Numbered from the stretch's first letter, positions 12,171-60,005 are shown. The stretch: DNA of 62,360 nt from Pseudomonadota bacterium (GCA_039714155.1 JBDLJX010000004.1:1-62360), one strand, 5' to 3'. Notes: generated from the sequence alone by a model not told the origin. Program-made: numbers and translations.

Positions 12171-12226
12171 TTGCGTCTTTCACTAAAAGATAAAGCTGTT
12201 TAATTTACCTGGAGGAGAATAACCCA

Positions 12227-25645: not shown

Positions 25646-25654
25646 GGCTGGTCC

Positions 25655-26827: not shown

Positions 26828-27386
26828 GGATGTCCTCCTGCCAGGCGCCGGCAGTTACCTGCGCCGCGGCCTGTTCGACCAGTTGGCGGTTATTTTCGAG
26901 TACCTTGCCCTGAAAGCGCTGGCCAAGCGCTTGTATCAGCGCCGATTGCGGCAGCAGGCCGGTTAGCGCCAGGAAGGCCGACAACAGTGCGGTGTTGGGC
27001 AACGGCCGGCCAAGGATTTCCTGTGCCAACGCGCTTGCCGGCAGCGCCACGACCGGATGTTCGAGTTTGGCGCCGAGCACATCGCCGTCCTCGCTGGAAT
27101 TGACCAGTATCGAGCCATTGGCCTGCAAGCCATCGGTGATACCCGGGACATGCAGAAGGGACGCGTCCTGGATGATCAGGAAGGCCGGTTCACGCACCTG
27201 GCAGCGGCGACGTATGGGGCGGTCGGCAATTCGTACAAACGCGGTCACCGGCGCACCCCGGCGTTCGGCGCCGAAATTAGGAAAGGCCTGTGCATACCGG
27301 TCTTCCTCAAATGCAGCAATGGCGAGCAGATAGGCGGCAACCACATTGCCCTGTCCACCCCGGCCATGTATCCGGATTTCAATCAT
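26811..27386 (-). CDS. porC: 2-oxoacid (pyruvate):ferredoxin oxidoreductase gamma subunit
   Basis: IRIHGRGGQG; FPNFGAERRGAPV; PNTALL. Confidence 0.9.
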   Translation of the reverse strand: MIEIRIHGRGGQGNVVAAYLLAIAAFEEDRYAQAFPNFGAERRGAPVTAFVRIADRPIRRRCQVREPAFLIIQDASLLHVPGITDGLQANGSILVNSSEDGDVLGAKLEHPVVALPASALAQEILGRPLPNTALLSAFLALTGLLPQSALIQALGQRFQGKVLENNRQLVEQAAAQVTAGAWQEDIHAASA

Positions 27387-42209: not shown

Positions 42210-43104
42210 AGAACCCCCCCCGTGTGAATGTATTAGCCCCATCTGCCCCCAGATGACACCTAACAGTCAATATTTTGTCATTGACTGACAGCAAAAACGT
42301 ACGCTCAAAAGATATATATCACAATATGTGGGAATTCAAAAGGTATGTATAGCAATATGTAGTAATACTTACTCATATGGGATTAGAGCTGGTTTCGTAA
42401 AAGTCTCAAAGGGGGGCTCCGGTCCTTTAGTATTTTCTTATACACATATCAGAGAAGTCTTACAGACACCTACCTGTGCCTCGCGAATTATTGATATTGC
42501 ACGAATCAGACGCTCGGCCAGTCTTGCTCCTGATGGTGATCTCCTTCGATCTATGCTGCCATGAAGGCCAGACTTCCGGGGCCTGGCGGTGCAAAGGCCA
42601 TAGTCACTGAGCACCTCATTGTGAAGTAACAGCACCTGGAAGTTATTAGCGTTGCAATAACCTTCCTTTTTAACAAATGCTCGCAGAACCGTATGTGAAC
42701 GTCTCCGCTCATACGGCTCCCATCATTCAGCCGGGATGTTAGAGTTATGACACCTCACTAACCTACTTTCTTGTTCGGTGCCTCGTGGCACACATACTGT
42801 AAGCGGTCATTCAATGACAGCTATTAATCCATAGCGACCCGGATCAAAAACACGAGTGGGGGAAACAGGCCGTAGTAGCGGGTCAGGTTCATCCGGGTAC
42901 GCGATTGCTGATCGCGGATGAAATCCGCGCCTTCGGTCGCCCCGGCTGTTTGCACACATCGTACAAACACAGCCCGCAGAATGGGTAAGGGAGCGTAGCG
43001 ACGTACCCACCAAAAGAGCTATAACTACGATATAGTCGCTGACATGTTCGCCTGTTACTCCATATAATATGCAAAAATCCCGTCAGCCTCCTGGTCGTTG
43101 TGCC

Positions 43105-44721: not shown

Positions 44722-44722
44722 A

Positions 44723-45346
44723 GTGATGGCAATGGAACCCACGGTTTTCCTGGTAGATGACGATCAAGCCGTTCGTGACGCGCTCGAGTTGCTGTTGGAA
44801 ACGGCACAGCTCAGAACTGAATCCTTCGATACGGCAGAAGCCTTTCTTGACGCCTGTGATCCGGACCGGCCGGGTTGTCTGGTGCTGGATATTCGCATGC
44901 CCGGGATGAGCGGTATAAAACTGCAGGGAGCACTTGTGGCAAGGGGCATTATCACCCCTGTCATCTTTCTGACAGGGCATGGCAATGTTTCCATGTCCGC
45001 ACAGGCATTCCGCAGTGGTGCAGTCGACTTCATGGAGAAACCATTCGAAGAAGGTATGCTGCTTGAAAGAATTCATGAGGCAATCCGGCTTGACCAGTCA
45101 AACCGGGAAGCCCTGGCCAAACAGGCGAATGCAAATGCCCTACTGGCATCCCTGACGCCAAGGGAACGAGAAGTCATGGGGCTGGTTGTCGCCGGCAAGG
45201 CAAATAAGGAGATCGCCAAGGAACTGGATTTGAGCCATCGAACCGTAGAAACGCACCGCAGGTGGATAATGACAAAAACCGGCGCTCGTTCACTGGCTGA
45301 CCTGATTGAGCTTACCCGAGCAAGCAGAGGCTCCGAACCGAATTGA
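44723..45346 (+). CDS. FixJ/TtrR family response regulator
   Basis: LDIRMPGMSG; FLTGHG; LTPREREV...NKEIA...TVETHR. Confidence 0.93.
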   Translation: MMAMEPTVFLVDDDQAVRDALELLLETAQLRTESFDTAEAFLDACDPDRPGCLVLDIRMPGMSGIKLQGALVARGIITPVIFLTGHGNVSMSAQAFRSGAVDFMEKPFEEGMLLERIHEAIRLDQSNREALAKQANANALLASLTPREREVMGLVVAGKANKEIAKELDLSHRTVETHRRWIMTKTGARSLADLIELTRASRGSEPN

Positions 45347-45357
45347 CACCACACTAT

Positions 45358-45382
45358 GGGTAATTACACGTAAGTAATACCC
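45358..45382. promoter_or_regulatory. Imperfect inverted repeat, candidate FixJ/NarL-family site
   Basis: GGGTAATTAC ACGTAA GTAATACCC between the regulator and the next ORF. Confidence 0.4.
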
Positions 45383-45415
45383 CGCATTTCCCTCGCCCCG
45401 ACAATCACCTAGTCT

Positions 45416-45796
45416 GTGGGCATGGAACAATCAATCAGCGTCCCATTACTCCCGTTAGAAACCCCGGCAACCCATCCTCAAAAGACCCCGGACCCGGCGG
45501 GACTCGGTGACTCGCGAATCCTGGTCGGAACAGATATCAGGATATACCAGGGCGGGCTGCTGATAGCCCGTTGCAGGGCGCGTGGTATTGCTCCAGCCAG
45601 ACTCTTTGCCAGAACCGACCCTCTCCCCTATCCGGTAAATACCCAGCTGGAAATCGAGTTCGTTTCAGACGGAAACAGGGTGACCAGTATATCCCGGCTA
45701 CCTGCCACCGTTATGCACCGCTCCACCAGCGGGATTGAACTCAGGGTCAGTCCCGGCCTTGCAAGTGCTACACGCACCGGAGATGACGCCTGGTGA
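45416..45796 (+). CDS. PilZ-like barrel hypothetical protein, possibly degenerate
   Basis: CRARGIAPARLFA...LEIEF...LPATVMHRSTSGIEL resembles the PilZ barrel; c-di-GMP motifs not intact. Confidence 0.45.
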   Translation: MGMEQSISVPLLPLETPATHPQKTPDPAGLGDSRILVGTDIRIYQGGLLIARCRARGIAPARLFARTDPLPYPVNTQLEIEFVSDGNRVTSISRLPATVMHRSTSGIELRVSPGLASATRTGDDAW

Positions 45797-46300
45797 AACA
45801 CTCTCCATCCACCCTTCACGAAGCTGATGATCGACCGGGGCACGTAATTATACGTGCGTAGTATCCCGCTATATACATATAGCATTTGGTCACGTATAAA
45901 ATGTTGTGTGCACTAATGGCATTCTTACCTTCCCCTATATGCTCCCAAAGAAATAGAGGCAGGTGAGTGCTGTAGAGCACCAACCGATTAGGAATAAATG
46001 CAACATTTGATGGTTGATCCTTTACGGCTAGAATAATAATTGGCAACAAGAGGTAGGCGTCATGACTCAAAAAACTTCCAGATTCGGCATGGGTTTGCTG
46101 ATGGTTCTATCCGCTGCACTTTCCCTGGCTTTGATATTCTTTCTCGAAATGACTGCATAAGTTGCCAGGAATAGACCTTCTTTGAAGGTGTTGCAGGCAA
46201 CCCAATTGGTTCGTCAGTCGTAATTCCTTCAGGCTTGGAAGCAGTTATAGGTTCAGCTCTTGGGGACGTTACCTTTGCTACAGCTCAGTCGGTACCTGTC

Positions 46301-47495
46301 TGTGCTGTGGCGAATTCGTAATTGTGACCTGAAAACGCTAACTTAGACAGTCTTGTTCCTGAAAGCAATCGCCCCTACCCTGCTCTGCCATGAAGGATCT
46401 GCTGGTACTCCTCGCCCATCTATTAACCACGATCGCCAAGCTCCTGGGACCCGGTGGCGCGAGGGCCATCGTCGCTGACAGTCTCATATTGAAGCAACAA
46501 CTCCTGGTCATCAATCGCTCTCGGCGACGCGCGCCCAATCTCTCGGCACTTGATCGATTCCTATTCGGCTTCTGGTCGCTATTTCAACCCACGCCACATT
46601 AAGCGGGCTGCCGTGATTATTCGGCCTTCTACGCTATTGAAATTTCACGACCTGCTCAAGAAACGAAAGTACCGACTGCTGTATTCATCTGGCAGTAAAG
46701 GAAAACCCGGTCCCAAGGGACCATCGCGGGAACTCATCCAGGCCATCGTTGAACTGGAACGACGCAATCCACGGTTCGGATGCCCACGGATCGCACAGCA
46801 GATCAACAAAACGTTCGGAATCGACATCGATAAAGATGTGGTGCGGCGTGTCCTCGCCGCACATTACCGACCTGGTTCCGGTGACGATGGGCCCTCATGG
46901 CTAACATTCCTCGGGCACACAAAGGACAGCCTCTGGAGTATTGATCTGTTTCGGCGTGAATCCATTCTGTTGAAGAGCCACCGGGTGCTCGTCATCATGG
47001 ATCAGTTCACTCGGCGCGTTATCGGCTTTGGCGTCCACTCTGGAGATGTTGATGGTGTCGCCTTGTGTCGAATGTTCAACAAGGCTCTCACATATCAGGG
47101 TATTCCACACTATCTCAGCTCTGACAATGACCCACTATTCCAATATCACCGATGGCAGGCAAATCTTCGCATCCTGGATATCAAAGAGATTAAGTCCGTT
47201 CCCTGCATACCGTTATCGCATCCGTTCATCGAACGACTGATCGGGACTATTCGCCGCGAATACCTTAACCATGCACTCTTCTGGAACGCCCGCGACCTGG
47301 AGAGAAAACTGGAAGAATTTCGACAGTATTACAACGCTTATCGTGTGCACACTTCGCTCAACGGCGATACACCCTCAGAAATCACCGGCGAAACCATCAT
47401 CCACCTTGCTGACCTCAACCAATTCCGATGGAAATCTTATTGCCACGGACTATACCACTTACCCGTAGCGGCCTAAGCATCAATTCGCCACACAC
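46301..47495 (+). mobile_element. Near full-length IS (family 1) with an rve integrase-core transposase
   Basis: TIRs TGTGCTGTGGCGAATT / AATTCGCCACACAC; about 1.2 kb. Confidence 0.85.
46390..47476 (+). pseudogene. Frameshifted integrase-core transposase
   Basis: ORF 46390-46602 continues in another frame (NPRHIKRAA...) near 46585; DDE-like WSIDLF, SSDND, FIERLIGTIRRE, YYN. Confidence 0.8.
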
Positions 47496-47549
47496 TAAAA
47501 GAGGTTACCCATTAGCCAGACTCGGGGATCGCCACTTCCTGGTCATACC

Positions 47550-49073
47550 CTATTCCGGACTTGTTCCGACATCGAACAGATTGATCTGGGTTCCCAGGCG
47601 CGTTTGCACGGCACCGCCGGCCAGGCCCTTGGAAAACAGCAAGATGTTCAGCGATCCGCCGTACAGGAAGTTGCCGAGGCGAGTGTAGCCTCTTTTCACC
47701 ACTTTTCCGGGGACGATGTCCTTGTCCAGCACCACCGACCCTATGGTATTCAATCCCACAGGGACGGATGCGACGTAGCCAGTCAGTGCCGTTCCATCCA
47801 GGTCGGTGTACTTGACCTCGATGATGATCACGCCCCGCTGGAAAACCTGGAACTGGCTGAAGTCGCTGCCGGGTCGCCCTGCATCGCCGCTCGTCGGGGC
47901 CCAATTCGGGAAATCGAAATAACCATAGGTGCCGTCGGATACCACCGCGGCGTGGACGATCCTACCGTTGACCGGGGAATGAAAGTGATGATAGGTGTTC
48001 GGCATCAGCACACAGGAGAGCCCGGAGCCACCCACAAAGCGGCTCCTGTACTTGTCGTCCACGCCCTTCAGGAGCTCGTCCAGGCTGATAGGAATGCCCT
48101 TCACATCGAGCACCGTATTGAGCTGCAGCGGGTTGTCAATCAGCTTTCTGGACACCCTCCGCCCCTCATTCAGGACCTGAACGAGGGGGTTCATGATGCA
48201 ATCCGTGGGCGATACCACGATGTAGTCGCGTTTAGGGTACTCCTTCAACGGCATGGTGGCAGGCCGGCTGGGAATGGTTCGGCTCTCGTGGTCGACGATG
48301 ATCTCGCGGGCGAAAAACTCGTTCCAGGACTTGTAGTCTCCTGCCCTGTACTTCTGATAATCCTCGATCTCGATTCGAGGATCGCTGACCCACTCCTCGA
48401 TGAAGTTCGTAGACACGGGACTATCCATGAACATACCCCGTTGCTTGCTGAAGTCCTGGGTGAACTTCAGGCCCGTGAGTAGTGGCTCGGCGGGATCGAG
48501 CGGGTTTCTCCCCTGGACGAATGCCTGGCCGGCCTCGTTGTGGTAGTAGAACCAGGCGAAATCCTGAATGTACTCAAGTCCGTTGTCGTGCGTACCGTTA
48601 ATGCGCGGGAGAAAGGTGCACCAATCGGCGAAGAAGGGCACCATCAGCCCCAGCAACTGTCTCCCGTCCTCAGCGGCTTCCCAGGGATTGGGCATCGAAT
48701 ACGCGGGAGGAAGATCCTGCATCCCCGCCGCCGCCGCATCCAGCGCCTTGGGCACTACCGGGTTCGTGTAGAACTGATCCAGGAGGAACGCTAGAGAGTC
48801 GCTGCATGGGGAGGCCGCGACAACCGAGATCATATGGATATCCAACAGCCCCTGGCCAAAGTAGCGCCCACGTAAATTGTCTAACGATGTTCGAACGCGC
48901 TCGTACCGCTCGCTGGTAACCAGGCTTCTCAGGTGCTCCGGCACGTGTTGCTCATATTCTGATACCATTGCTGAGCCGGTCGAATTCGGGGTTCCCGCCA
49001 AAGACGGTAATGCGAATGAAAGGCAGCCGGCCAATACCAAAACGGCGAGCGTCGATGCGGACAGGGTCCTCAT
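47550..49073 (-). CDS. Exported phosphatidylserine-decarboxylase-family (pyruvoyl, PsiD-like) decarboxylase
   Basis: SWNEFFAR; SPTD; YHHFHSPVNG; GNFLYGGS self-cleavage motif; hydrophobic N-terminal signal (LVLAGC...SLAG). Confidence 0.85.
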   Translation of the reverse strand: MRTLSASTLAVLVLAGCLSFALPSLAGTPNSTGSAMVSEYEQHVPEHLRSLVTSERYERVRTSLDNLRGRYFGQGLLDIHMISVVAASPCSDSLAFLLDQFYTNPVVPKALDAAAAGMQDLPPAYSMPNPWEAAEDGRQLLGLMVPFFADWCTFLPRINGTHDNGLEYIQDFAWFYYHNEAGQAFVQGRNPLDPAEPLLTGLKFTQDFSKQRGMFMDSPVSTNFIEEWVSDPRIEIEDYQKYRAGDYKSWNEFFAREIIVDHESRTIPSRPATMPLKEYPKRDYIVVSPTDCIMNPLVQVLNEGRRVSRKLIDNPLQLNTVLDVKGIPISLDELLKGVDDKYRSRFVGGSGLSCVLMPNTYHHFHSPVNGRIVHAAVVSDGTYGYFDFPNWAPTSGDAGRPGSDFSQFQVFQRGVIIIEVKYTDLDGTALTGYVASVPVGLNTIGSVVLDKDIVPGKVVKRGYTRLGNFLYGGSLNILLFSKGLAGGAVQTRLGTQINLFDVGTSPE

Positions 49074-49238
49074 AACAGATCATCCTTGCGAAAAATCGGA
49101 GACAGCGAACAAATGCTCCGGACATGAAAAGAATTGGCCTCTGTGGCCGATATTTAGAAGCCTAGCACATCTGCACAGCCTGATCCTGAGGCCTGAGGGC
49201 TCCGACCACAGCACCAAGAACCCAGGGCTCAGCTCTTT

Positions 49239-49350
49239 TCACCCAGCACTGGGGATGTCCTTGGCCTTCTTGCCGTTGAGGATTGCCAAGGCCATCGCGG
49301 CCGTGAGCCACTCCATCCTCCACCACGCCGCAGAGGAAGCCGTCGGCCGT
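49239..49350 (-). pseudogene. Fragment resembling the C-terminus of an ABC_sub_bind (PF04392-like) substrate-binding protein
   Basis: Minus-strand frames read DGFLCGVVEDG..HG, then AAMALAILNGKKAKDIP after a frame change. Confidence 0.4.
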
Positions 49351-49590
49351 GCTTTATGCCTACATTTTGCACGTTATGGAAATTTAATAAATCAAGAAAA
49401 GACGAAACGAACAATTGTTGGGGAACGACTACTTTGGGTGGCGAGTTCAACCGGTGAGGGGATTGCGACGGTTCCTTCCTTCGCATAGTCTCGGAGAGAA
49501 AACCGCTATCTGTGGAGAGAACACCATGGACATATCAGGCTGCTCCTATCTTGTTTACGTTGTCACGGGAAACACTGAGCGCACTCCAGC

Positions 49591-51939
49591 ATGAGGCTGC
49601 GCACCCGCCTCCTAGCCACACAGGTTCCAGCCATGCTGTTGCTGTTTCTGGCATTGTTCGCGCTCGCCTTCAACACCAGCAGGAGTATCCTGGCAGAGCA
49701 GATCCAGCGTGAAAGCAGAGCACTGGCACGAGCCCATGCCGGCGAATTCGATCTGCTGTTCCAGACCGCGCAAACTGTGGCCCAAGGCCTCGCACTAGCC
49801 GTAGCTAATGACTCGGAGCTGGACCCGGTCCGTATCGAGAAACGCATCCGCAACACCTTGGAGCAGTACCGCTTTATCTATGGCTCAACCGTCGCCCTTA
49901 TCCCCGAAGCCACCGAGCTGAGAAGTTTCGCGCCCTACCTGTACCGCGAGCCGGAAGGAATCCGTTCCACCTCGCTGGCCACGGCGGACTACGATTATCC
50001 GCACTGGGACTGGTTCCGCACCCCACTGGAACAGAATAGTGCGACCTGGGGCGAGCCCTATTTCGACAAGGGCGGCGGTAATATCCTGATGGTTACCCAC
50101 TCCGCACCCATCCGCCGTCAGGGGCAAATCCTGGGGGTGGCCACAGTAGATATCTCTATCGCCGAGCTGGTGGATCAAATCCGGGCTCTGCGGGTGGCCG
50201 ACAGTGGTTACGCATTCCTGCTCACGGCAAGTGGTCGCCTGATTGCCCATCCCCGGCAGGGCCTGCTGTCGGAGCAGGACCTGAAGACAATGATCAAGGC
50301 TTCTGACGACGGTAATCTGAGGATGCTGGAAAGGCTAACGGCCGACAGCGGTGATGAGCTTGCGATGTTCACTGATCCGTTTTTAGGCCAGCCAAGCTGG
50401 GTAGTAAGCAGTCGCATAGAGGCCACCGGCGCCACCCTGCTTATCGTCCTGCCGCTGCAGGAGATCATGCGTCCCGTGACCCGGCTCAAACAAAAGATGT
50501 TACTGGCTGCGGTGCTGATTATAGCGATTACCCTGACAATCATCCTGGCCCTGTCTGCCAACATCACGGCACCCCTGACCCGGCTGGTGGGACAAGCGGA
50601 GCATTTCGCCGCGGGACGCCTGGACCGGCGTTTGCCCGAGGATACAGGCCCAGTGGAGACTCGCCACCTGGCACATGCTTTCAATAACATGGGCGCAGCT
50701 ATACAGCGGAACATCGAGGAAGTGCGTAGCGCCACCGCAGAAAAAGAGCGCTATCACAAAGAGCTTCAAATCGCCGCCGAGATTCAGAAGGGGATCCTGC
50801 CGCATCGTTTTCCCCCGTTCGCCGACCTGGAGGCCCGACTGGATCTTGCGGGCCTCACACGGCCGGCCCGTGAGGTGGGGGGCGATTACTACGATTTTTT
50901 CCGTTTGTCCCGCGACCGTATCGGCATTGTGGTCGCCGATGTCTCCGATAAGGGTGCTGCGGCCGCCCTGTTCATGGCCATTACCCACACCCTGGTGCGC
51001 GAGGTGGCCCAACGCCGGGTTCCCCCGGCCGAGGTGCTGAGGCGCATCAATCGTACATTGGCCAACGAAAATCCCTCCGCCATGTTTGTCACCCTGGTGT
51101 ATGGCGAATACCACTCGGATACAGGCCATCTGCGACTTGTCAATGCTGGCCACAATCCGCCCCTGCTACTCCGCGCCGACGGTGGCATGCAGATCGTGAT
51201 GGCCAAGCCCAGACTGCCGCTGGGCGCCATGCCGGACACCCGCTATGAAACCCTGGAACTGCGGTTGGAACCCGGCGACAGCATCCTGCTGTACTCGGAC
51301 GGTATTACCGAGGCCTGCAATTCGGAGCAGGAAGAGTGGGGCCTCGGCCGGTTGCAGAAAGTTCTGGGAAAGCTTCAGGGAGATATGCGGACGGTTGCCC
51401 ATGAATTACTGGCACGGGTCGATGCCTTTCGCGGTAACGCCGAGCAGCACGACGACATCACCCTGTTATTGCTGCAACGCCAGCCTGCAGACTCGCCGGC
51501 CGCCGACAAGGCCGAGCATGTCCGCAGCGTACGCATGGAGTGGCCGGCCCGCACTGAAATACTGGCTAAGGTGGCCGCCTTGGTCGAAGCCATGGCCCGG
51601 GACGCTGGCTTCGACGAGCGGGAGGCAGGCCGTCTGGTGCTGGCCGTCGACGAGGTGGTCAGTAATGTGATCCGACACGGCGATGGGAAGGAAAACCGTT
51701 TCGCCATGGAGCTTACCCCGCTAGATGGGGGGCTGGAGGTCACAGTAATCGACTGGGGCGAGCCGTTCGACTTCGAGGCCAAGTCCCATACATACAGCGG
51801 GACGGTGTCATTGGATCATGAGCCCGGCGGCATCGGCCTGTATCTCGCGTGCCAGTCGGTGGATGAGGTTCGCTATACCCCGAACGCCTTGGATGGCAAC
51901 CATCTTACGCTAGTGAAGTACCTAAGTGCCTTATCCTGA
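49591..51939 (+). CDS. dCache-HAMP-SpoIIE (PP2C) phosphatase fused to an RsbW-like HATPase kinase
   Basis: TM-dCache (WDWF, WGEPYFD, MVT, TVD)-TM-HAMP; EVGGDYYD, ADVSDKG, NAGHNPP, YSDGITEA, QHDDIT; AVDEVVSNVIRHG, DWGEPFD, GGIGLYL. Confidence 0.92.
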   Translation: MRLRTRLLATQVPAMLLLFLALFALAFNTSRSILAEQIQRESRALARAHAGEFDLLFQTAQTVAQGLALAVANDSELDPVRIEKRIRNTLEQYRFIYGSTVALIPEATELRSFAPYLYREPEGIRSTSLATADYDYPHWDWFRTPLEQNSATWGEPYFDKGGGNILMVTHSAPIRRQGQILGVATVDISIAELVDQIRALRVADSGYAFLLTASGRLIAHPRQGLLSEQDLKTMIKASDDGNLRMLERLTADSGDELAMFTDPFLGQPSWVVSSRIEATGATLLIVLPLQEIMRPVTRLKQKMLLAAVLIIAITLTIILALSANITAPLTRLVGQAEHFAAGRLDRRLPEDTGPVETRHLAHAFNNMGAAIQRNIEEVRSATAEKERYHKELQIAAEIQKGILPHRFPPFADLEARLDLAGLTRPAREVGGDYYDFFRLSRDRIGIVVADVSDKGAAAALFMAITHTLVREVAQRRVPPAEVLRRINRTLANENPSAMFVTLVYGEYHSDTGHLRLVNAGHNPPLLLRADGGMQIVMAKPRLPLGAMPDTRYETLELRLEPGDSILLYSDGITEACNSEQEEWGLGRLQKVLGKLQGDMRTVAHELLARVDAFRGNAEQHDDITLLLLQRQPADSPAADKAEHVRSVRMEWPARTEILAKVAALVEAMARDAGFDEREAGRLVLAVDEVVSNVIRHGDGKENRFAMELTPLDGGLEVTVIDWGEPFDFEAKSHTYSGTVSLDHEPGGIGLYLACQSVDEVRYTPNALDGNHLTLVKYLSALS

Positions 51940-52098
51940 ATCCGGTATAGTAGCCCCGCTGAAATCTGTAAGGTTCCAGATGCGACTGGTTAGACAGGGA
52001 GTTGAGTTGCCAAACTTTAAACAGGCAACTGACTTTCTCGTACCTTTAATTAGTGCCCGGCGTTTGGTGTAAACGCCGTAAATTAAGAGGAAAGTAAC

Positions 52099-52953
52099 AT
52101 GACTGCCATAACCAACGGCACTGTTTCCATTGCACCCTCCTTGAGCGACCGCGAATATGCCGAGTGTTTCGATACGTTTAGGCAGATCTCAACCGAATGG
52201 AAATCGACACAGAAGTGGCTGAGTGACGATCTCCTTCCCCAGCGTGCCTGGTCAGATCCTCTGAACATTCTGAGTATCGGCAGTGGCACCGGAGATTTCG
52301 ATTTGCAGCTTATGAAGCTCATCCTGAAGCGCTGGCGTATCGGGTCCTATATCGCAATCGATCCCAATCCCGATCATAATCAAATATTCACAACCAGATT
52401 CCGGGAGAGCGGCCTGACGGTTTCCAATTTCGAAATACTCTCTCAGACCTTCCCAGTCCAGCATCTCGATATGAAATTTGATCTTGTCCATATGACGCAT
52501 TGTCTTTACTACATACCGGACCGGCTCAAGGCCATTCAAGCTGCCCTCGATATCCTGAACAATCAGGGTCTTATTTTAGTCTTTCACCAGACCCCTTTGG
52601 GCATCAACGAAATTCAACGGCGATTTTTAAAACGTGCCAAGGGCAACGAAAGTGAAATGTATTCTTCCAAGGACATCTATCGGTTGCTGGAATCACTTCC
52701 TGCCACTTTTGCATTTGACATTATTGATGGAATACTGGATGTGTCGGATTTAGTCGCACCGCAGTCTCTTCGGGGAAAGCAGCTTCTGAACTTTTTTCTG
52801 GAATGCCGTGCAGATTTGTTACCACCGGAATTCAAGGAAGAGGTTGTAGATTTCATCAAAGGGTTAGCGTTTACTGAAAACAACCGCCAAGTCATATTCC
52901 ACCCTGTCGGGGTTTTCTGTATATCGCGCAATCCCAACCAAGCTGCGATATAG
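52099..52953 (+). CDS. Class I SAM methyltransferase, histamine-N-methyltransferase-like
   Basis: ILSIGSGTGDFD; AIDPN; FDLVHMTHCLYY, resembling HNMT LSIGGGAGEID and DFIHMIQMLYY. Confidence 0.8.
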   Translation: MTAITNGTVSIAPSLSDREYAECFDTFRQISTEWKSTQKWLSDDLLPQRAWSDPLNILSIGSGTGDFDLQLMKLILKRWRIGSYIAIDPNPDHNQIFTTRFRESGLTVSNFEILSQTFPVQHLDMKFDLVHMTHCLYYIPDRLKAIQAALDILNNQGLILVFHQTPLGINEIQRRFLKRAKGNESEMYSSKDIYRLLESLPATFAFDIIDGILDVSDLVAPQSLRGKQLLNFFLECRADLLPPEFKEEVVDFIKGLAFTENNRQVIFHPVGVFCISRNPNQAAI

Positions 52954-53019
52954 ATAACAGATCCCCAAAGCGATGGAACTGAATTCCCATTAACAACTAA
53001 TGTCTCCTGCGTGATGGTC

Positions 53020-53637
53020 TTACGCTGGTTTGCTTACCGTAATCCACAGGAACACCTCGCCACTAATATTCCGATAGTCCCGGGCTTCAATGTCAAAGCC
53101 CAGCCGTTCCAAATCAATATATAGTTTTTCCGGGCTTTTATGGCTGTAATACAGCTCCTGCCCCAAGAATTCCTTATACCCATCGAATTCCAGCTTGCCC
53201 GTGTACTCCTGGGTTGCATAGGTGAATAATACTTTTCCATTCGGCCGCAACCAGTCGAATATTTTCCTGAACAAGGCTGCATGATCATCTCGGGGGACAT
53301 GGAACAGGGCATAGATCATGGTGACCGCATCAAATTGGCCCGGTTCGAATTCGATATCGCGCATATCGGCATAGATGGTATCCATGTTCGGAACGTATCT
53401 GGCCGCCAAATCGAGCATCCGTTGCGAAAAATCTATGCCCGTGACCGACCAGCCCCGATTTATGAAGGTAGCAGCAAACGGTTCGCCTGCCCCGCAACCC
53501 AGGTCGAGCACTCTTCCCTTTATTATGTCGAAACGCTGGTAAAAAGCGTTAAACACCTCCGTCATATCGAAGATACCGCGGCTCTCCTCATAGGTGTCAG
53601 CAAATTCATCATAGATGCGGGCAAGGGATTTTTTCAT
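53020..53637 (-). CDS. Class I SAM-dependent methyltransferase
   Basis: VLDLGCGAG; GIDFS; FDAV...ALFHVPR; LRPNG. Confidence 0.9.
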   Translation of the reverse strand: MKKSLARIYDEFADTYEESRGIFDMTEVFNAFYQRFDIIKGRVLDLGCGAGEPFAATFINRGWSVTGIDFSQRMLDLAARYVPNMDTIYADMRDIEFEPGQFDAVTMIYALFHVPRDDHAALFRKIFDWLRPNGKVLFTYATQEYTGKLEFDGYKEFLGQELYYSHKSPEKLYIDLERLGFDIEARDYRNISGEVFLWITVSKPA

Positions 53638-53860
53638 GGATGAGTGAACATTTAACTGATTATAAGTTGCTGGAAAGCATCCTGTTCAGAGACTCCTTGC
53701 CTAAGTGGCCACCGGAAAGATCGACCGGAAGCGGTTGAAGGTTTGGTAATCATTCGTTAACCTTTCCCTTTCACGGTCTTCCGTCTGACTATGCCGCAGC
53801 GCATACAGACAAACTCGGCCCCTCACGGTTGCCGATCCCGGTCTGCCCCTGTCCGGATGG

Positions 53861-54178
53861 CTATGCCGGTTCGTCGCTAACAATGGTGAACAGATCCGAG
53901 AATCCCGAAAGATCCAATACTTCTTTCACGTTCTCCTGCGGAGAGCGCAATCGCATGTCGCCCGCCTTGGCCCGCACTTCCTTCAGGATTATCAGCAGTA
54001 CCCTCAGACCAGCGCTGCTCAGATACTGAATCCCGTGCATATCCAGGTCCAGCCACACGGTACCTTGAGCGAGTTGCTGCCGGAAAGCGGCATCCAGTTC
54101 CGGTGCAGTATGGCTATCCACACGACCCGCCACGCTGAGGATGGTCCATTTTCCTTCTGTCCTGTCATGAATCTGCAT
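53861..54178 (-). CDS. STAS-domain anti-sigma-factor antagonist (RsbV/SpoIIAA-like)
   Basis: GRVDSHTAPEL; YLSSAGLRVL phosphoacceptor motif; VKEVLDLSGF; GGAG RBS. Confidence 0.9.
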   Translation of the reverse strand: MQIHDRTEGKWTILSVAGRVDSHTAPELDAAFRQQLAQGTVWLDLDMHGIQYLSSAGLRVLLIILKEVRAKAGDMRLRSPQENVKEVLDLSGFSDLFTIVSDEPA

Positions 54179-54263
54179 ATGTCTACTCCGACGGTTGAAA
54201 TCTTGCAATACCCACGAAATTATACTGCCACCTTCTACAGCCGGGAAAGAGTTGCGCACGCTG

Positions 54264-54440
54264 CTATGGCTCATACAGTCCGGCACCGACGATCATTTCT
54301 TCGCCGTCCACCTGAACTCTCCGAATGTAGGCCAGCTTCCGCACCTGGTCGGCGTATCCCGGCCTGGCCCAGTAGTATTCTACCCAGGCACTCTGGCCAT
54401 TTTGCGTCTTACAGAAGGCCCATGATAGATGTACTGCCTC
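54264..54440 (-). pseudogene. C-terminal fragment of a Cache_2 domain protein
   Basis: Minus strand reads GQSAWVEYYWARPG...RKLAYIRRVQVDGEEMIVGAGLYEP*; no in-frame start; not in the ORF track. Confidence 0.65.
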
Positions 54441-54647
54441 AATGGCTTGCTTAAGGTGGAAGATAATTCAAAAACCAAAAACGCATCAGCAAGATTTTGG
54501 TGATTGATAATAGTTATTATTTGTCACTGTTCTTGCCTCTATAATATAATTCCAGAGTGCAATTGTTTCTGTTATCGTAATCCAAACCAGGCACTGACTT
54601 AAGTGTCTTTAAATGGTTAACAAACAATCTCTTTGTCCCCATTAATT

Positions 54648-55829
54648 ATGACTTTTATTACTGATATCGTTTCCACAAACGTTCACGAAGCCCACATCTC
54701 AGCTATCAAAGGCATGGCCATATTAAGCGCCAGGGTAGAGGGGGCCGCATCGCTCACCTGGGGGCTACCGTCTTTTCGTACACCGGAATATATTCGCCGG
54801 GGTGTCAAACAGTATCTTGATGAAGATCTCGATGCTGGCAAATATACCTTACCCGACGGTCTGCCTGAACTACGTGAACTGGTCGTGGCAAAACACAAAG
54901 CAAAGACTGGTATTGATGTTGACGCGGATGAGAATGTGATGATCAGTGCCGGCAATATGCAAGGTTTGAACACACTGTTTCATACCATGCTTGATCCGAG
55001 CGATGAGATCATCCTGACCGACCCGTGTTTTGCATCACACATCCAGCAGATTAATTTATTCTCGGGTAAGCCGATTTACTGGCCGCTGGATGAAAACAAT
55101 AACTGGTCTCTGGATATAGATTTATTGCCAGATTTAATTACTGACAAAACGCAGGCCATAGTTCTTGTTAGTCCATCAAACCCTACGGGAAAAATATTTT
55201 CCGAAGATGAACTGATCCGTGTCGGTGAGATCGCCAAGCGACACAATATACTGATTATTATCGATGACCCGTATAGTGTCTTCGTTTACGACAACAGGAA
55301 TAAATATTTTAATCTCGCCAGCGTTGAGGAATTTAAAGAGCACATTGTTTATTTGTATTCATTTTCAAAATCTTATGCCATGAGCGGTTGGCGATTGGCC
55401 TATATGGTAATGCCTGCCGAATTGAAACGTGAAGCGCTCAAAGTACACGATGCAACAATGATTTGTGCGCCGCGCATTTCCCAGTTGGCGGGTATTGTTG
55501 CATTGAGTCAGCCCTCTGATCATAAACAGGAATTTGAAACAATTCTGAATAGTCGCAGAGAACTAATCTGCCAAAGACTCGACGATATACCGCATGTTTT
55601 TGCCAATCAAAAACCTGAAGGGGCGTATTATATTTTTCCAAAAATAATTGCAGCCCACACAAATTCGGAAAAATTTGCAATAGATTTACTAAACAATGCC
55701 AGAGTTACGGTCACACCAGGCAGTGCTTTTGGACCTTCAGGTGAACATCATGTGAGGATGGCATACTGCGTTGATGAAGATACGATCAATCTGGCGTTTG
55801 ACCGAATCGAAAAACATTTCAAAGGCTGA
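54648..55829 (+). CDS. PLP-dependent class I/II aminotransferase
   Basis: YTLPDGLPELRE; SPSNPTG; DDPY; SFSKSYAMSGWRLAY; TPGSAFG; visibly AT-richer. Confidence 0.92.
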   Translation: MTFITDIVSTNVHEAHISAIKGMAILSARVEGAASLTWGLPSFRTPEYIRRGVKQYLDEDLDAGKYTLPDGLPELRELVVAKHKAKTGIDVDADENVMISAGNMQGLNTLFHTMLDPSDEIILTDPCFASHIQQINLFSGKPIYWPLDENNNWSLDIDLLPDLITDKTQAIVLVSPSNPTGKIFSEDELIRVGEIAKRHNILIIIDDPYSVFVYDNRNKYFNLASVEEFKEHIVYLYSFSKSYAMSGWRLAYMVMPAELKREALKVHDATMICAPRISQLAGIVALSQPSDHKQEFETILNSRRELICQRLDDIPHVFANQKPEGAYYIFPKIIAAHTNSEKFAIDLLNNARVTVTPGSAFGPSGEHHVRMAYCVDEDTINLAFDRIEKHFKG

Positions 55830-56044
55830 TTGCTAGAAAATTATATGAGCAATCTATAAGTCTGCTCCGACCCGACCCAGAAGTTCAGCGCCTTGGATCG
55901 AATGTCTGGAAGGCAGCACCAGAGCGCGAACCCGGCAAGGCAGGTAAGGATGGCGGCAGCGACTTAACTAACCAGAGGCACATCCAGGAGATGTCTTCAG
56001 AGCAGGCGCCATGCCCGCAACATTCACTTACCAGGAGAGCAACA

Positions 56045-56266
56045 ATGACCAATCGGCATCACCAACGCGCAGACAAAGTGGTAGCGGAGTTCAAGAATAT
56101 TATTGGCGAATCGATATGTAACCAGATCCAAAGCGCTCACTTTCAGGACCTTACCCTGCTGGTACGCGACTTGATTACCGACGACCTGCTTGTCGCGGCT
56201 GAACTGATCGATAAGGTGGCCCAGCAGCTACGGAGTGAGTCCGATTTACACGAAATGGAACTCTAG
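56045..56266 (+). CDS. Small hypothetical protein
   Basis: AGGAG RBS, 73 aa, helical pattern. Confidence 0.55.
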   Translation: MTNRHHQRADKVVAEFKNIIGESICNQIQSAHFQDLTLLVRDLITDDLLVAAELIDKVAQQLRSESDLHEMEL

Positions 56267-56462
56267 CTTCCGAAGGGCTCAGGCCTGATTGGCTTGATTG
56301 GTATAGCTAGACGCAAGAAAGCGGCGTAATCATTAAATCAGCAGCAACAGAGTCGGCAGCTTAGGTCGCCGTCTTGTGTTTTCGTGAATTGCTACTACGG
56401 CCGAAAGTACGCGTTTAGCTGACAGAACTGGCCAGGCCGTGTCGAACGCGTGCAATCGACCC

Positions 56463-56865
56463 TGTGGGTGGCGAATTCATAATTATTAACTGAAAACGAT
56501 AACCTAGACAGTCTTGTTCCTGAAAGCAACCGCCCCTACCCTTCTCTGCCATGAAGTATCTGCTGGTACTCCTCGTACATCTACTTACCACAGTCGCCAA
56601 ACTCCTGGGGCCCGGCGGTGCGAGAGCTGTCGTCGCTGACAGCCTCTGGAGCATTTATCTGTTTCGCTATGAATCCATTCTGCTGAAGACCCACTGGGTA
56701 CTCATCATCATGGATCAGTTTACTCGGCGCATCATCGGCTTTGGCGTCCATGCTGGCGATACCGATGGTATCGCCCTGTGCCACATGTTCAACAAAGCCA
56801 TTTCTACCCAATGTGTTCCATACTACCTCAGTTCTGACAATGACCCGCTATTCCGGTACCACTCT
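56463..56865 (+). mobile_element. Truncated, internally deleted IS family 1 copy
   Basis: Left TIR TGTGGGTGGCGAATT; N-terminus MKYLLVLL fused directly at ADSLWSI to the integrase core; stops at DPLFRYH. Confidence 0.82.
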
Positions 56866-56962
56866 ATGCGTGACTCGTGAGTCGACTTATCGTGTTGACC
56901 ACCAGTCTCCTGCCGTGACACACTAATGACTCAACCGACCGACCATCAACTGCGCGAACTCG

Positions 56963-58162
56963 ATGTCTCTATACGACGAAGTGTATGGGCGAGAGCCCAG
57001 CCAACCCGTATCCTCGAGCCAGCGCGGTGCTGGCCTCGGCCTGTCGGGTGGTGGATTCCGCGCCATGTTGTTCCACGTGGGAGCACTCCGGCGCCTGTTC
57101 GAGGCCGACGCACTGCGCGACCTCTCGCGCATCACCAGTGTGTCGGGCGGGTCGATCACGGCCGCGCAGTTGGCCCTGCACTGGGATACACTGACCGCGC
57201 ACCCGGGAGATCTCACGCGCTGGAAGGCCCTCGTCGAAGCGCCGCTGTTCGAGTTCGCGGGCAAGCGGCTCGACGCCCTGGCGATCGGCGCCGGGTGGGT
57301 CCGGCCACGGCGCGGCGCCGCGGACGGCGTTGCGGATGCCTACGACAAGCTATTCGGTGGCGCTACGCTCCAGAGCCTCCCTACGGATCCGCGCTTCGTC
57401 ATCCTCGCCACCAACCTCGGCACCGGCTCGCTCGTACGCTTCGCCGCGAAGTACACTGCCGATCAGCGGGTCGGGCGAAACCAGGGACTGGACATCCGAC
57501 TCGCTGATGCGGTGGCCGCGTCCTCCGCCTTCCCACCGATACTCTCTCCGAAAGTGATCCGTCTCGCAGACCAGGAGGCGTTGACGGATTCCTTCCCGGG
57601 CGACCAGCCACCCCTGCAGCGCAAGCCCTGGACCCACCGCCTCGAGCTCACCGACGGCGGCGTCTACGATAACCTCGGCCTCCAGCCTCTCGAGAAGTAC
57701 CACACTATTCTGGCGAGCGACGGCGGCGGCCCCTTCGCGTTCAAGGAGCGCGTTGCGAAGAACTACCTCCAGCACATGATTCGCGCCTGGGTGGTCACCG
57801 ACAACCAGGTCCGTAGCCTGAGGCGCTCCAACCTCGTCTCCGAATACCGGGTCGATACCCGCCTCGGCACCTACTGGGGCATCAATACGCAGATCGCGAA
57901 GTACTCGAAGCAACGCATCGACGTCGACCCGAGCTGGATCGAGGAGCTCTCATCGGTTCCGACCCGCCTCTGGCACATGCCGGAACGCGTGCGCAGACGC
58001 CTGATCAACTGGGGCTACGCAGTCTGCGACGCGGCGTTTCGAAGCTACGTGGATAGCAACCTGCCCGACCCAGCCGGGCTGCCATACCCGGGCGACCCTC
58101 TGTCGGCACCGGTTCCAGAGCAATCGCTGTGGCGGCGGATCTTGAGACTGGATCCCGCATGA
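56963..58162 (+). CDS. Patatin-like phospholipase
   Basis: LSGGGFRAMLFHVG; nucleophile SVSGGS; AASSAFPP; TDGGVYDNLG. Confidence 0.92.
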   Translation: MSLYDEVYGREPSQPVSSSQRGAGLGLSGGGFRAMLFHVGALRRLFEADALRDLSRITSVSGGSITAAQLALHWDTLTAHPGDLTRWKALVEAPLFEFAGKRLDALAIGAGWVRPRRGAADGVADAYDKLFGGATLQSLPTDPRFVILATNLGTGSLVRFAAKYTADQRVGRNQGLDIRLADAVAASSAFPPILSPKVIRLADQEALTDSFPGDQPPLQRKPWTHRLELTDGGVYDNLGLQPLEKYHTILASDGGGPFAFKERVAKNYLQHMIRAWVVTDNQVRSLRRSNLVSEYRVDTRLGTYWGINTQIAKYSKQRIDVDPSWIEELSSVPTRLWHMPERVRRRLINWGYAVCDAAFRSYVDSNLPDPAGLPYPGDPLSAPVPEQSLWRRILRLDPA

Positions 58163-58199
58163 CACCTCCCAACACGGGTGAGGAAACGAGGGAGAAATC

Positions 58200-60005
58200 A
58201 TGAAGCGAGCAACCTTCGACGAGGTGTTCTTCGGAGAAATCGACGAGGTATTCTTCGGCCGCGACCGGCAGCTTCGCTTCGCGGTCGAGTGCCCGGTCAA
58301 GTACGAGGTCTGGCTCGCCTACGCGCAAGGGGAGACCGATCGCCTCGACCTGATCTTCGAGTCCAGCGAGGATACGGAGCCCAAGGAGGTCGCGGCGAAG
58401 TTCGTCGAGCTGCTCACGCAGGCGGAATTCAATGTTGCCGACGCCAAGATCGCGGTCACGGGCGACTTCGTCGCCACCGAGATCGACTTCAAAGAACTCG
58501 TCGCCTGTGTGCTGCCCCTGACCTCCATGCGTGAGATCGTCCACATCGCGGCCGACATGTCCATCGACGCCCTGCGCTCGCTCATCCAGGGCGAACGAAT
58601 CCCGGACCAGGACTACCTGCCGGAATCCACGCCGCGGCAGCGAAGGCGCGAGGTCGCCGATCGACTGGTGTGGTTCGTACGCCTGCTGGCAGCCGTGAGC
58701 GATAAGGCGGCGAACACTGGTCGCGACCAGGTACAAGTCGACACGGTCGCAGAACACCTGATCAACATCCTGCATCGGGTCCAGAGACCAATGACGACCA
58801 CAAGCCAAACCGTCTGGCAACAGAAGAGCTACAACGCCGAGCCACCGCCGATCGAGGCCGACGAGCCGATGCGGCTCATCGAACGGGTGACCAAGAACCG
58901 AGAAGCGTCGGTGGCCGTCACTCGGTCTCGAACCACGATCAAGGCCGACGCGGTGCAGCGCCTGTTCGAATCGAGCTGTAAGAACATCGCCTGGGCGATC
59001 GTCGACAGCGGCATCGACGCGACACACCCTGCCTTCCAGGAGCCACCCGGTCCGCCGGCCCTTCCTGAGGCGAGTCAGTCACGTATCCGCGCGACCTACG
59101 ACTTCACTCGGGTGAGGGAAGCGCTCTCATTGGTCACGGGAGGGGAGCTGGACGGGCGCGTCAGCTCCGGGGGCGAGGTCAACTGGTCGAAGATCATCGA
59201 GGAGGGCATCCGCGTCGAACACAACGCCAGTTATCGAAAGCCGAAGTCCGACCACGGCACCCACGTCGCCGGCATTCTCGGCGCCAAATGGCCCGAGCGC
59301 GACCTGCAGGGCATTTGCCCCGATATCGGGCTCTATGACTTCCGTGTGCTCGGAGACAACGGTCGCGGAGACGAGTTCTCGATCGTGGCTGCCCTCCAGT
59401 TCATCCGCTGGATCAACGAGCGTGCGCGCCGCACCGTCATCGCAGGGGTGAACCTGAGCTTCTCCATCCCCCACGACGTCGCCAACTACTCGTGCGGGTG
59501 GACCCCCGTCTGTGCGGAAGCCGATCGACTGGTCCGCTCGGGCGTCGTCGTCGTCGCGGCCGCTGGCAACAGCGGCTACATGGGAGCCGCCCATGCGACG
59601 GGAACCGAGTACCACAACATCAGCGTGACGGATCCCGGTAACACGGACCGTGTGATCACCGTCGGCTCGACCCATCGCACCGACCCCCACCGCCACGGAG
59701 TGAGCTTCTTCTCGGGGCGCGGCCCCACGGCCGACGGCCGCCTCAAGCCCGACCTGGTGGCGCCGGGCGAAGCGATCGACGGGCCGATTCCCGGGGAGGA
59801 GATCCGCACCATGGACGGCACGAGCCAGGCGGCACCCCACGTGAGCGGCGCCGCAGCCCTACTGATGGCTCGCTATCGAGAGCTCATCGGTGCACCAGAG
59901 CGCGTCAAGGAGCTACTGGTCAGCTCCGCGACCGACTTGGCCCGCGACCCGACCTTCCAGGGCTCCGGTGTCGTCGACGTGCTAAGGGCAATGCAATCAC
60001 TATAA
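58200..60005 (+). CDS. Cytoplasmic S8 (subtilisin-like) serine protease with an uncharacterised N-terminal domain of about 250 aa
   Basis: IVDSGID (Asp), HGTHVAG (His), AAGNSG (oxyanion Asn), GTSQAAPHVSG (Ser); no signal peptide. Confidence 0.93.
   Translation: MKRATFDEVFFGEIDEVFFGRDRQLRFAVECPVKYEVWLAYAQGETDRLDLIFESSEDTEPKEVAAKFVELLTQAEFNVADAKIAVTGDFVATEIDFKELVACVLPLTSMREIVHIAADMSIDALRSLIQGERIPDQDYLPESTPRQRRREVADRLVWFVRLLAAVSDKAANTGRDQVQVDTVAEHLINILHRVQRPMTTTSQTVWQQKSYNAEPPPIEADEPMRLIERVTKNREASVAVTRSRTTIKADAVQRLFESSCKNIAWAIVDSGIDATHPAFQEPPGPPALPEASQSRIRATYDFTRVREALSLVTGGELDGRVSSGGEVNWSKIIEEGIRVEHNASYRKPKSDHGTHVAGILGAKWPERDLQGICPDIGLYDFRVLGDNGRGDEFSIVAALQFIRWINERARRTVIAGVNLSFSIPHDVANYSCGWTPVCAEADRLVRSGVVVVAAAGNSGYMGAAHATGTEYHNISVTDPGNTDRVITVGSTHRTDPHRHGVSFFSGRGPTADGRLKPDLVAPGEAIDGPIPGEEIRTMDGTSQAAPHVSGAAALLMARYRELIGAPERVKELLVSSATDLARDPTFQGSGVVDVLRAMQSL

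Follow-up and report, generated by a model that had tools for sequence, protein, structure and literature searches.

Partner switching is known mostly as a way of freeing sigma factors, and in only a few cases as a way of controlling an enzyme directly. Here, we describe a locus in which the controlled enzyme may be a small-molecule methyltransferase. The locus occupies positions 47550..55829 of a 62,360-nt stretch of DNA from a Pseudomonadota bacterium (GCA_039714155.1 JBDLJX010000004.1:1-62360), the whole of which we refer to as 'the window'. It encodes a membrane sensor with a periplasmic dCache domain, an S-adenosylmethionine (SAM)-dependent methyltransferase that resembles human HNMT, and a small STAS protein, together with a decarboxylase and several other genes. 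An earlier account of this DNA, made by a model from the sequence alone (the 'sequence-only reading'), saw in it a pathway from amino acid to amine to N-methyl amine, sensed by the dCache domain and read out by partner switching. Our analysis points to a different center of gravity: what makes the locus interesting is a probable module of sensor, STAS protein and methyltransferase, in which partner switching would take a new form, and not a loop from decarboxylase to sensor. We propose, as a reading that could well be right but falls a little short of probable, that the core of the locus is a partner-switching module in which the dCache domain governs the balance, at a serine of the STAS protein, between PP2C phosphatase and RsbW-like kinase, and the STAS protein controls an amine-type N-methyltransferase. 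Gene content was taken from a listing of open reading frames (ORFs) and from Pfam and NCBIfam scans of the window; all of the genes named in the sequence-only reading were present at the positions it gave them. The three components of the proposed module are:

49591..51939, plus strand: membrane sensor of 782 amino acids (aa), dCache-HAMP-PP2C(SpoIIE)-HATPase_c_2 (Pfam/NCBIfam)
52099..52953, plus strand: HNMT-like SAM-dependent class I methyltransferase of 284 aa, 160 bp downstream of the sensor gene
53861..54178, minus strand: SpoIIAA/RsbV-type protein with a single STAS domain (TIGR00377), 105 aa with the ATG at 54178 as start

The sensor combines both enzymatic halves of a partner switch in one polypeptide. 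A first transmembrane segment (residues ~7-27) is followed by the periplasmic dCache region (~28-300), a second transmembrane segment, a HAMP domain (321-372), a PP2C/SpoIIE phosphatase domain (441-630) and a HATPase_c_2 kinase domain (652-776); the two hydrophobic segments thus bracket a periplasmic part of ~270 residues. The Pfam matches are strong throughout (MCP-like_PDC_1, E = 2e-31; dCache_1, 2e-13; HAMP, 3e-11; SpoIIE/PP2C, 2e-55; HATPase_c_2, 1.4e-19), and RsbW/RsbA-type kinase models of NCBIfam match the sensor under their cut-offs. The STAS protein scores 74.5 bits against TIGR00377, the anti-sigma-antagonist superfamily (cut-off 53.45). Its reading frame is open upstream to a GTG at 54286 (53861-54286), and the ATG at 54178 is probably its start. 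It carries the motif Y52-L-S54-S55-A-G57-L, in which we take Ser54/Ser55 to be the phospho-acceptor site, mapped by eye from SpoIIAA/RsbV; its best matches in the PDB are SpoIIAA-type proteins. All parts of an RsbU/RsbW/RsbV-type switch are therefore to be found here: PP2C phosphatase, RsbW-like serine kinase, and STAS with conserved Ser54/Ser55. Apart from the sensor's own kinase domain, no sigma or anti-sigma gene was found in the 62-kb window. Of the partner-switch read-out proposed earlier, the two enzymatic halves in the sensor and the nearby STAS gene hold up; the amine loop as its input is not supported.

Several known systems are built on similar lines. The regulators of HsbR/HsbA (Pseudomonas), CrsR/CrsA (Shewanella) and SypE/SypA (Vibrio fischeri) are bifunctional, with PP2C and RsbW-like kinase activities that act on a STAS protein. 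Like the locus described here, they combine PP2C and HATPase_c_2 in one protein and have a separate single-domain STAS with a conserved serine. They differ in that their input is a receiver domain, where the window's sensor has a periplasmic dCache-HAMP, and in that the window has no sigma/anti-sigma target nearby, the candidate target being the methyltransferase. In Pseudomonas aeruginosa, the SiaABCD system activates a diguanylate cyclase through a small partner protein, which is under the control of a PP2C phosphatase and a kinase; SiaABCD and HsbR/HsbA are both enzyme-output partner switches with diguanylate cyclases. SiaABCD shares with our locus a membrane-bound HAMP-PP2C sensor and a phospho-switched partner that regulates an enzyme, but in the window phosphatase and kinase are joined in a single protein, a classical STAS is the partner, and an HNMT-like methyltransferase would take the place of the cyclase. 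The NCBIfam SiaA model matches sensor residues 172-627 at 76 bits, and since this is far under the cut-off of 700, the sensor is not a SiaA orthologue. In a literature search, no paper appeared from its title or abstract to describe fusions of STAS with a methyltransferase, or a partner switch whose output is a methyltransferase.

The methyltransferase has human HNMT as its best solved relative (E = 8.7e-10, residues 18-259), in agreement with the sequence-only reading. It has the HNMT-type fold, the GxGxG SAM loop and residues of the substrate pocket. Taking the HNMT active-site residues as they are named in the accessible part of one study (PMC9867436), E28 corresponds to E33 of the window enzyme, F19 to F24, Y147 to Y138, Q143 to H134 and M144 to C135; Y137/Y138 align to HNMT Y146/Y147. 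The mapped pocket residues are invariant or nearly so in 43 family members. Against this likeness to HNMT (PDB 1JQD/1JQE), in which E28, F19 and Y146/Y147 are conserved, stand a His in place of Q143, a C-terminal part containing N283 that falls outside the alignment, and a family that is prokaryotic and includes STAS, PAS and tandem-methyltransferase fusions. In a language-model atlas of proteins the enzyme adjoins the clusters of HNMT and carnosine N-methyltransferase 2. Because the pocket residues are conserved and the atlas neighbors are of this kind, a small cationic, amine- or imidazole-like substrate is plausible, as far as can be judged from sequence. The enzyme has no signal peptide. 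More distant relatives (P0234, P0248, P0250, P0251 and P0319) include tandem double and triple methyltransferases, a PAS-methyltransferase and a 1330-aa methyltransferase-Rieske protein, whose Rieske oxygenase part weakly resembles glycine betaine monooxygenase (77 bits, far under the cut-off of 670). The wider family may thus, as these forms hint, carry out N-methyl chemistry in several steps.

Two independent lines of evidence connect the methyltransferase to partner switching. One is natural gene fusion. Four of 87 methyltransferase homologues (P0184, P0187, P0217 and P0219; 374-387 aa, 43-50% identity) carry an N-terminal STAS domain, and one of the four bears the source name 'anti-anti-sigma factor'. 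When 1.84 billion representatives were searched exhaustively, 604 proteins came back at E <= 0.001, 22 of them at 1e-30, and the second-best 50%-identity cluster, after the enzyme's own, is a further fusion of 379 aa (P0233, E = 3.7e-77) with STAS at residues 4-99 and Methyltransf_23 at 142-302 (Pfam). The Y-x-S-S-x-G motif is kept in the fused STAS domains as in the window STAS, with Y52, S54, S55 and G57 invariant in their alignment. The other line is co-occurrence with the sensor. We compared 21 sensor with 87 methyltransferase homologues for exact identity of longest-contig size together with the same source label. Three pairs agree: 9832 bp (sensor P0125, 79% identical in the sensor part; methyltransferase P0145, 85%), 8721 bp (P0126, 78%; P0152, 78%) and 9041 bp (P0133, 45%; P0158, 73%). 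The number expected from a local-density estimate is 0.077 (Poisson P ~7e-5). Sensor and methyltransferase seem, then, to belong together, and sensor, HNMT-like methyltransferase and probably STAS look like one system.

How might such a system work? Binding of a ligand to the dCache domain would shift the balance of kinase and phosphatase at the serine of STAS; in one of its two states, unphosphorylated or phosphorylated, STAS would bind the methyltransferase and switch it on or off; and the methyltransferase would N-methylate a small cationic, amine-like substrate in the cytoplasm. The output of the switch would likely be an enzyme, not a sigma factor. Since the dCache input is periplasmic and the methyltransferase cytoplasmic, the circuit would sense outside and methylate inside; and the natural STAS-methyltransferase fusions point to a methyltransferase that is regulated by the switch, not to one that makes the dCache ligand. 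If this is true, small-molecule methylation joins the outputs of partner switching, which gains a new output as well as a new input (dCache-HAMP), and methyl transfer becomes an assayable read-out for a class of receptors whose ligands are hard to find. A broader proposal is more speculative, and we regard it as possible but rather doubtful: HNMT-like N-methyltransferases switched by a fused or free STAS domain, itself written and erased by a dCache-gated PP2C/kinase receptor, would be a new class of phospho-regulated enzymes that couple a periplasmic amine-like cue to cytoplasmic amine methylation without a change in transcription. Such immediate methylation would serve inactivation, detoxification, or the synthesis of osmolytes or signals.

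What the sensor might detect can be approached through its dCache relatives. The best sequence match of its periplasmic part in the PDB is 3LIC, a Shewanella sensor (E = 4e-23) for which our literature search found no ligand. Next come 6D8V (McpX, a proline betaine binder; 1e-15), 9HVJ (a Roseburia uracil chemoreceptor; 1e-14), 3LI8 (mmHK1S-Z2; 6e-14) and 3LIB (mmHK1S-Z3; 7e-13), and then PctC and PctA. The model of the domain (pLDDT 89.6) is closest in fold to 3LI9/3LI8, 3LIB, 3LIC, MkcA, PacA, PctD, 9HVJ and McpX, all ahead of amino-acid sensors. In the accessible sections of Cerna-Vargas et al. (2023, PMC10589655), four of these—3LIB, PacA, PctD and McpX—are placed in dCache_1AM, the amine-binding class. 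According to the same sections, the class includes a Ser/Thr-phosphatase receptor from Desulfovibrio inopinatus (which binds ethanolamine at 2.3 uM), and SpoIIE outputs occur among its published architectures. We mapped the dCache_1AM motif, as given there, onto the sensor through a HMMER alignment to 6D8V, with a chain-to-residue offset of 37 that was verified on six residues named in the paper. Y116 falls at the position of the cation-pi contact (PctD W155, McpX Y139), W141/F142 at PctD F188/Y189, Y157 at the A204/Y177 position, M167 at M215, T169 where the motif has Ser (S217), and D187 at D235. Most of the mapped residues are invariant or nearly so among 22 aligned sequences (the window sensor and 21 relatives): Y116, W141 and D187 are invariant, F142 nearly so. 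The pocket that the sequence-only reading had picked out by eye (APY, WDWF, EPYFD, MVT, D) is thus real, and consists of Y116, W139/W141/F142, E155-P-Y157-F-D159, M167/T169 and D187.

The domain shares with the dCache_1AM sensors the same residue types at six pocket positions, and amine binders are among its nearest structures. It differs from them in lacking the lid insertion, a helical element with an R103-D133 pair in the published description, which is absent from the sensor both by alignment and in the model. In this region the alignment to McpX has gaps that add up to 14 residues, that to 3LI8 has a single gap of 14, and the model has an 11-residue loop, without helix, between strands 69-76 and 88-93. 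Because the insertion that defines the class is missing, 'amine-type' denotes a resemblance and not membership: the domain is nearest to amine sensors in sequence and fold and has their pocket residues. Nor does the domain fit the motif of the amino-acid-binding class in full. Five of the six positions of the dCache_1AA motif (Y121, R126, W128, Y129, Y144 and D173 in PctA numbering, from the same sections of PMC10589655) fit, the counterparts by spacing being Y134, W139, W141, F142, Y157 and D187, but the carboxylate-binding Arg is replaced by Trp139 (window 50005-50007). The missing Arg of the RxWY motif had been noticed correctly. The position is a variable one, with Arg in two of the 21 aligned relatives (P0127, 76% identical, and P0139) and Gln or Leu in others, and ligand class may differ within this one close family of sensors. 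In three relatives (P0135, P0137 and P0138; 36-41% identity), a dCache of the same subtype as that of the window sensor (49591-50520), with the same invariant pocket, feeds HD-GYP phosphodiesterase outputs; if these share one ligand with the window sensor, that ligand would feed partner switching and c-di-GMP signalling alike.

The remaining features of the locus and its flanks are as follows; IS denotes insertion sequence, PSD phosphatidylserine decarboxylase, and PLP pyridoxal phosphate.

46307..47476, plus strand: IS481/IS3-like IS, left element (Pfam rve_3, rve, HTH_32)
46550-47476, plus strand: transposase ORF of the left IS, 308 aa
47550..49073, minus strand: pyruvoyl-type decarboxylase, 507 aa, PSD superfamily, PsiD / Ao-ADC1 branch (PF02666 PS_Dcarbxylase)
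49074..49590, no strand: divergent intergenic region between the decarboxylase and sensor genes, 517 bp (ORF coordinates)
53020..53637, minus strand: second class I methyltransferase (MT2), 205 aa (Methyltransf_25/11)
54267..54467, minus strand: C-terminal remnant of a Cache_2-type domain, directly upstream of the STAS gene (weak dCache_2 match)
54633..55829, plus strand: class I/II PLP aminotransferase (E = 3e-56), 398 aa, the strongest compositional outlier
56468..56862, plus strand: fragment of ~395 bp of the same IS family, right element, degraded (weak rve match)

The decarboxylase, transcribed divergently from the sensor gene as noted earlier, was said to be a pyruvoyl enzyme, and this is borne out by sequence and fold. 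It matches Pfam PS_Dcarbxylase (PF02666) at 62 bits (cut-off 22), and begins with a signal peptide in which LAGC (Cys17) resembles a lipobox. It also has the motifs SPTD291C and YH362HFH365SP, and the self-cleavage motif G472-G473-S474; D291, H362, H365 and G472-G473-S474 are invariant across 28 aligned homologues. It does not reach a canonical PSD equivalog, its best NCBIfam model being NF001941 at 65 bits against a cut-off of 371. Its best solved relatives by sequence are 9JER (E = 6e-11) and PsiD (E ~1e-3), with E. coli PSD at 0.007. Its AlphaFold model (mean pLDDT 77.7) matches PsiD (E = 9e-11) and 9JER (5.5e-10) over 413-437 columns, and E. coli PSD over ~300. The Aspergillus oryzae enzyme 9JER, Ao-ADC1, is in the accessible part of its description (PMC12904898) an arginine decarboxylase that is pyruvoyl-dependent and has no PSD activity; it consists of a helical region at the N-terminus and a catalytic domain of PSD type. 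PsiD has GGSS and His296 (PMC11929908). The features of this branch—PF02666, Gly-Ser cleavage motif, catalytic His, N-terminal helical region—are all present in the window enzyme. Like Ao-ADC1 and PsiD, the tryptophan decarboxylase of Psilocybe, it shows the N-terminal helical region, the PSD-type catalytic domain, a GGS motif for cleavage and the histidines of YHxxH; it differs in being bacterial, in having a signal peptide and in part a lipobox in its family, and in its identity to them of ~17-18% in structural alignment. Placement in the amino-acid-decarboxylating branch of the PSD superfamily is thus supported by sequence comparison, and 'pyruvoyl amino-acid decarboxylase' is a fair name. 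Since most of the 28 homologues have a hydrophobic, signal-like N-terminus, as judged by eye, and three, including the window enzyme, a lipobox-like motif, the decarboxylase is probably exported.

The decarboxylase belongs to a widespread family (553 proteins at E <= 0.001 among 8000 scored candidates), and its neighborhood can be compared across genomes. One genome per species was scanned, and the best 80 loci of 141 confirmed relatives, 1.2 Mb in all, were kept; at least 3 kb upstream of the decarboxylase was available in 63 of the 80, and at least 3 kb on both sides in 48. In tblastn searches of these loci with the window proteins (E <= 1e-5), the HNMT-like methyltransferase, MT2 and STAS each had 0/80 matches, the aminotransferase one, which was weak, and the sensor one (L019, in the PP2C part only). 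Profile hidden Markov models built from our own alignments found this type of dCache in 0/80, PP2C in two (L019 and L051), STAS in one (L019), and a single weak, generic SAM-core match (L029). Pfam found no Cache, SpoIIE, STAS or Methyltransf_23 domain among 149 of the 151 immediate neighbors, two giant ORFs being excluded. When all 3351 ORFs were clustered against one another, the largest cluster not overlapping the decarboxylase gene spanned 7/80 loci. Because it has no conserved neighbors in the 80 loci, the decarboxylase appears to be an unrelated neighbor that lies outside the conserved module. Contig sizes tell the same story: 119 of the 120 listed decarboxylase homologues were compared, at least one of them (P0056) with an erroneous length that has no bearing on the matches, and none matched a sensor homologue. 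Against methyltransferase homologues there were two matches where 0.62 were expected, at 1684 bp and 3378 bp, neither of which amounts to linkage: both genes could not fit on the contig of 1684 bp, and that of 3378 bp, which we take to be locus L013 as size and NCBI source agree, has no methyltransferase. The closest database relatives are 95% identical for the sensor, 90% for the methyltransferase and 75% for the decarboxylase.

A few decarboxylase homologues have neighbors of another kind. Arginine or polyamine genes stand beside them in a handful of cases: an arginase-family gene directly upstream in two loci, a spermidine-synthase-domain gene in one, and a PvlArgDC-type arginine decarboxylase in one (L020:9003-9908, L021:1446-2351, L008:8143-9690 and L075:11774-12445). 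Together with Ao-ADC1 as best solved relative by sequence, these hint at arginine or a related compound as substrate of the family. In 4/80 loci, a tandem paralogous PS_Dcarbxylase-domain gene lies directly beside the decarboxylase homologue (L012:8149-9795, L055:8252-9424, L075:8414-9733 and L076:11176-12480).

The locus had been described as lying between two IS copies, and this is half correct. The left element has its 308-aa transposase ORF, which scores 99 bits against the NCBIfam IS481 model (cut-off 224), whereas the right is a fragment with an internal deletion, comprising two repeat blocks that are 87% and 81% identical to left positions 46307-46485 and 46925-47149. The block is not a composite transposon, which would need two intact, near-identical IS copies, as the right one here has a deletion and only 81-87% identity to the left. 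A search of 44000-58000 gave no pair of inverted repeats. Neither were there promoter-like signals over shuffled background in the 517-bp divergent region, and counts from a promoter/terminator scan of 47400-56000 were not above those of shuffles. The GC content at third codon positions (GC3) divides the block. The decarboxylase (0.75) and the sensor (0.71) resemble 30 other window genes (0.70 +/- 0.06); the HNMT-like methyltransferase (0.54, or 2.8 standard deviations under the window mean), MT2 (0.59), STAS (0.62) and the aminotransferase (0.43) lie lower, the HNMT-like methyltransferase and the aminotransferase being outliers, and the break is located in the 160-bp spacer between the sensor and methyltransferase genes. 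This confirms the caveat, raised in the sequence-only reading from orientation and GC, that part of the block is a chance mosaic. MT2 was rejected as a paralogue of the HNMT-like enzyme, with a match of only 27% over 85 residues; the two have little in common beyond the SAM-dependent fold. The Cache_2 remnant comprises the last ~45 residues of the domain (dCache_2, E = 0.0035, 17 bits, under cut-off; profile positions 252-294 of 298) and overlaps the upstream extension of the STAS reading frame (54179-54286); it may mark the destruction of an earlier arrangement of sensor and STAS. We regard the aminotransferase, MT2, the Cache_2 remnant, the IS remnants and the decarboxylase as neighbors without a demonstrated link to the module.

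Several observations weigh against the proposed module. The co-occurrence of sensor and methyltransferase is read from matching contig sizes and not from gene order. A GC3 of 0.54 for the methyltransferase beside 0.71 for the sensor is unexpected for an old gene pair, and the two cannot be reconciled unless the whole pair, or the methyltransferase, was recently replaced. The STAS gene is on the opposite strand, 0.9 kb beyond the methyltransferase gene, behind MT2 and beside the broken Cache_2 gene. Its product is of a generic kind, with 30-34% identity to the fused STAS domains and 36% to a STAS from an unrelated cassette on a Thiodictyon plasmid, and we reject a specific relationship to the fused domains. 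Its assignment to the methyltransferase consequently rests on proximity. Among the 87 homologues, methyltransferases of >57% identity are all unfused. The best match of the sensor in a tblastn search of plasmids (32% identical) is on Thiodictyon pTs417, in a typical cassette (STAS, substrate-binding protein, SpoIIE, ATP-binding fragment) that has a STAS and no methyltransferase; the methyltransferase itself found on plasmids only a 25%-identical Calothrix gene in unrelated context. A predicted complex of methyltransferase and STAS counts neither way, three runs having given 0.60, 0.16 and 0.14, with the median under the mark of 0.32 and without controls. Much of this would suit an ordinary partner switch in which the target of sensor and STAS, perhaps an anti-sigma/sigma pair or a different enzyme, lies elsewhere in the genome, and the methyltransferase is a conserved neighbor with a metabolic role of its own that STAS does not regulate here: the generic STAS with its SpoIIAA-type structural matches, the unfused close relatives of the enzyme, the GC3 break and the plasmid cassette are all as such an arrangement would have them. 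It must contend with a 62-kb window that offers no sigma or anti-sigma gene besides the sensor's kinase domain, with STAS fusions in the very family of the methyltransferase, and with three sensor/methyltransferase contig-size matches, and we judge it unlikely, though a serious contender. That the methyltransferase acts on a protein of the pathway, the sensor or STAS, in a CheR-like adaptation, and not on a small molecule, strikes us as very improbable. The gene does lie directly downstream of a dCache-HAMP receptor gene, and some relatives carry a fused signalling domain, but the enzyme is closest, among solved structures, to an N-methyltransferase of small molecules, it conserves residues of the HNMT substrate pocket, no CheR-like domain appears in the Pfam and NCBIfam scans, and its atlas neighbors are the HNMT and carnosine N-methyltransferase clusters.

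The make-and-sense loop of the sequence-only reading, in which an exported decarboxylase forms an amine that the methyltransferase N-methylates and the dCache reads, as amine or methyl-amine, through the partner switch, is in our view improbable. Some findings favor it. The decarboxylase is of the amino-acid branch, close in sequence and fold to PsiD and to Ao-ADC1 (E = 6e-11), which lacks PSD activity in the accessible text of PMC12904898; its signal peptide would put it in the same compartment as the dCache; and the dCache is nearest to amine binders and the methyltransferase HNMT-like. But the pathway requires the decarboxylase to travel with the rest, and it does not. Lack of co-occurrence had been set beforehand as the outcome that would count against the loop, and in the 80 decarboxylase loci neither the HNMT-like methyltransferase nor this type of dCache occurs; no decarboxylase homologue matches a sensor homologue in contig size, and the two matches with methyltransferases are due to chance; the best relative of the decarboxylase is, at 75%, far behind those of sensor and methyltransferase; the decarboxylase is probably exported while the methyltransferase has no signal peptide; and an IS element abuts the decarboxylase gene. 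The lesson is a cautionary one: an attractive story of making, modifying and sensing was drawn from adjacency alone, and synteny does not bear it out for the first of its enzymes. We give as little credence to a pure mosaic, in which no genes cooperate, adjacency stems from IS-mediated rearrangement and horizontal transfer, and the contig-size matches mislead. An IS element and an IS remnant at the two ends, a broken Cache_2 gene, four different GC3 levels within 8 kb and mixed orientations are what a mosaic would look like. Against it are three exact contig-size matches with the same source labels where ~0.08 were expected, and STAS-methyltransferase fusions that link the two functions independently of the window.

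The wider window holds several other features. Directly past the IS remnant, at 56963-60005, GC rises to 62-69% (GC3 0.81-0.82) in another block of distinct composition, where a 601-aa subtilase and a patatin-like phospholipase are encoded. At 43069-45346, a short way upstream of the left IS, there is a histidine kinase gene paired with that of a LuxR-type response regulator, with no evident tie to the locus, and the window contains several two-component systems besides. Genes for SoxY and a SoxA-type cytochrome occur at 11294-13066, and a four-gene, 2-oxoacid:ferredoxin oxidoreductase-like cluster at 22968-27386; together these suggest a sulfur-oxidising, possibly microaerophilic or anaerobic, proteobacterium.

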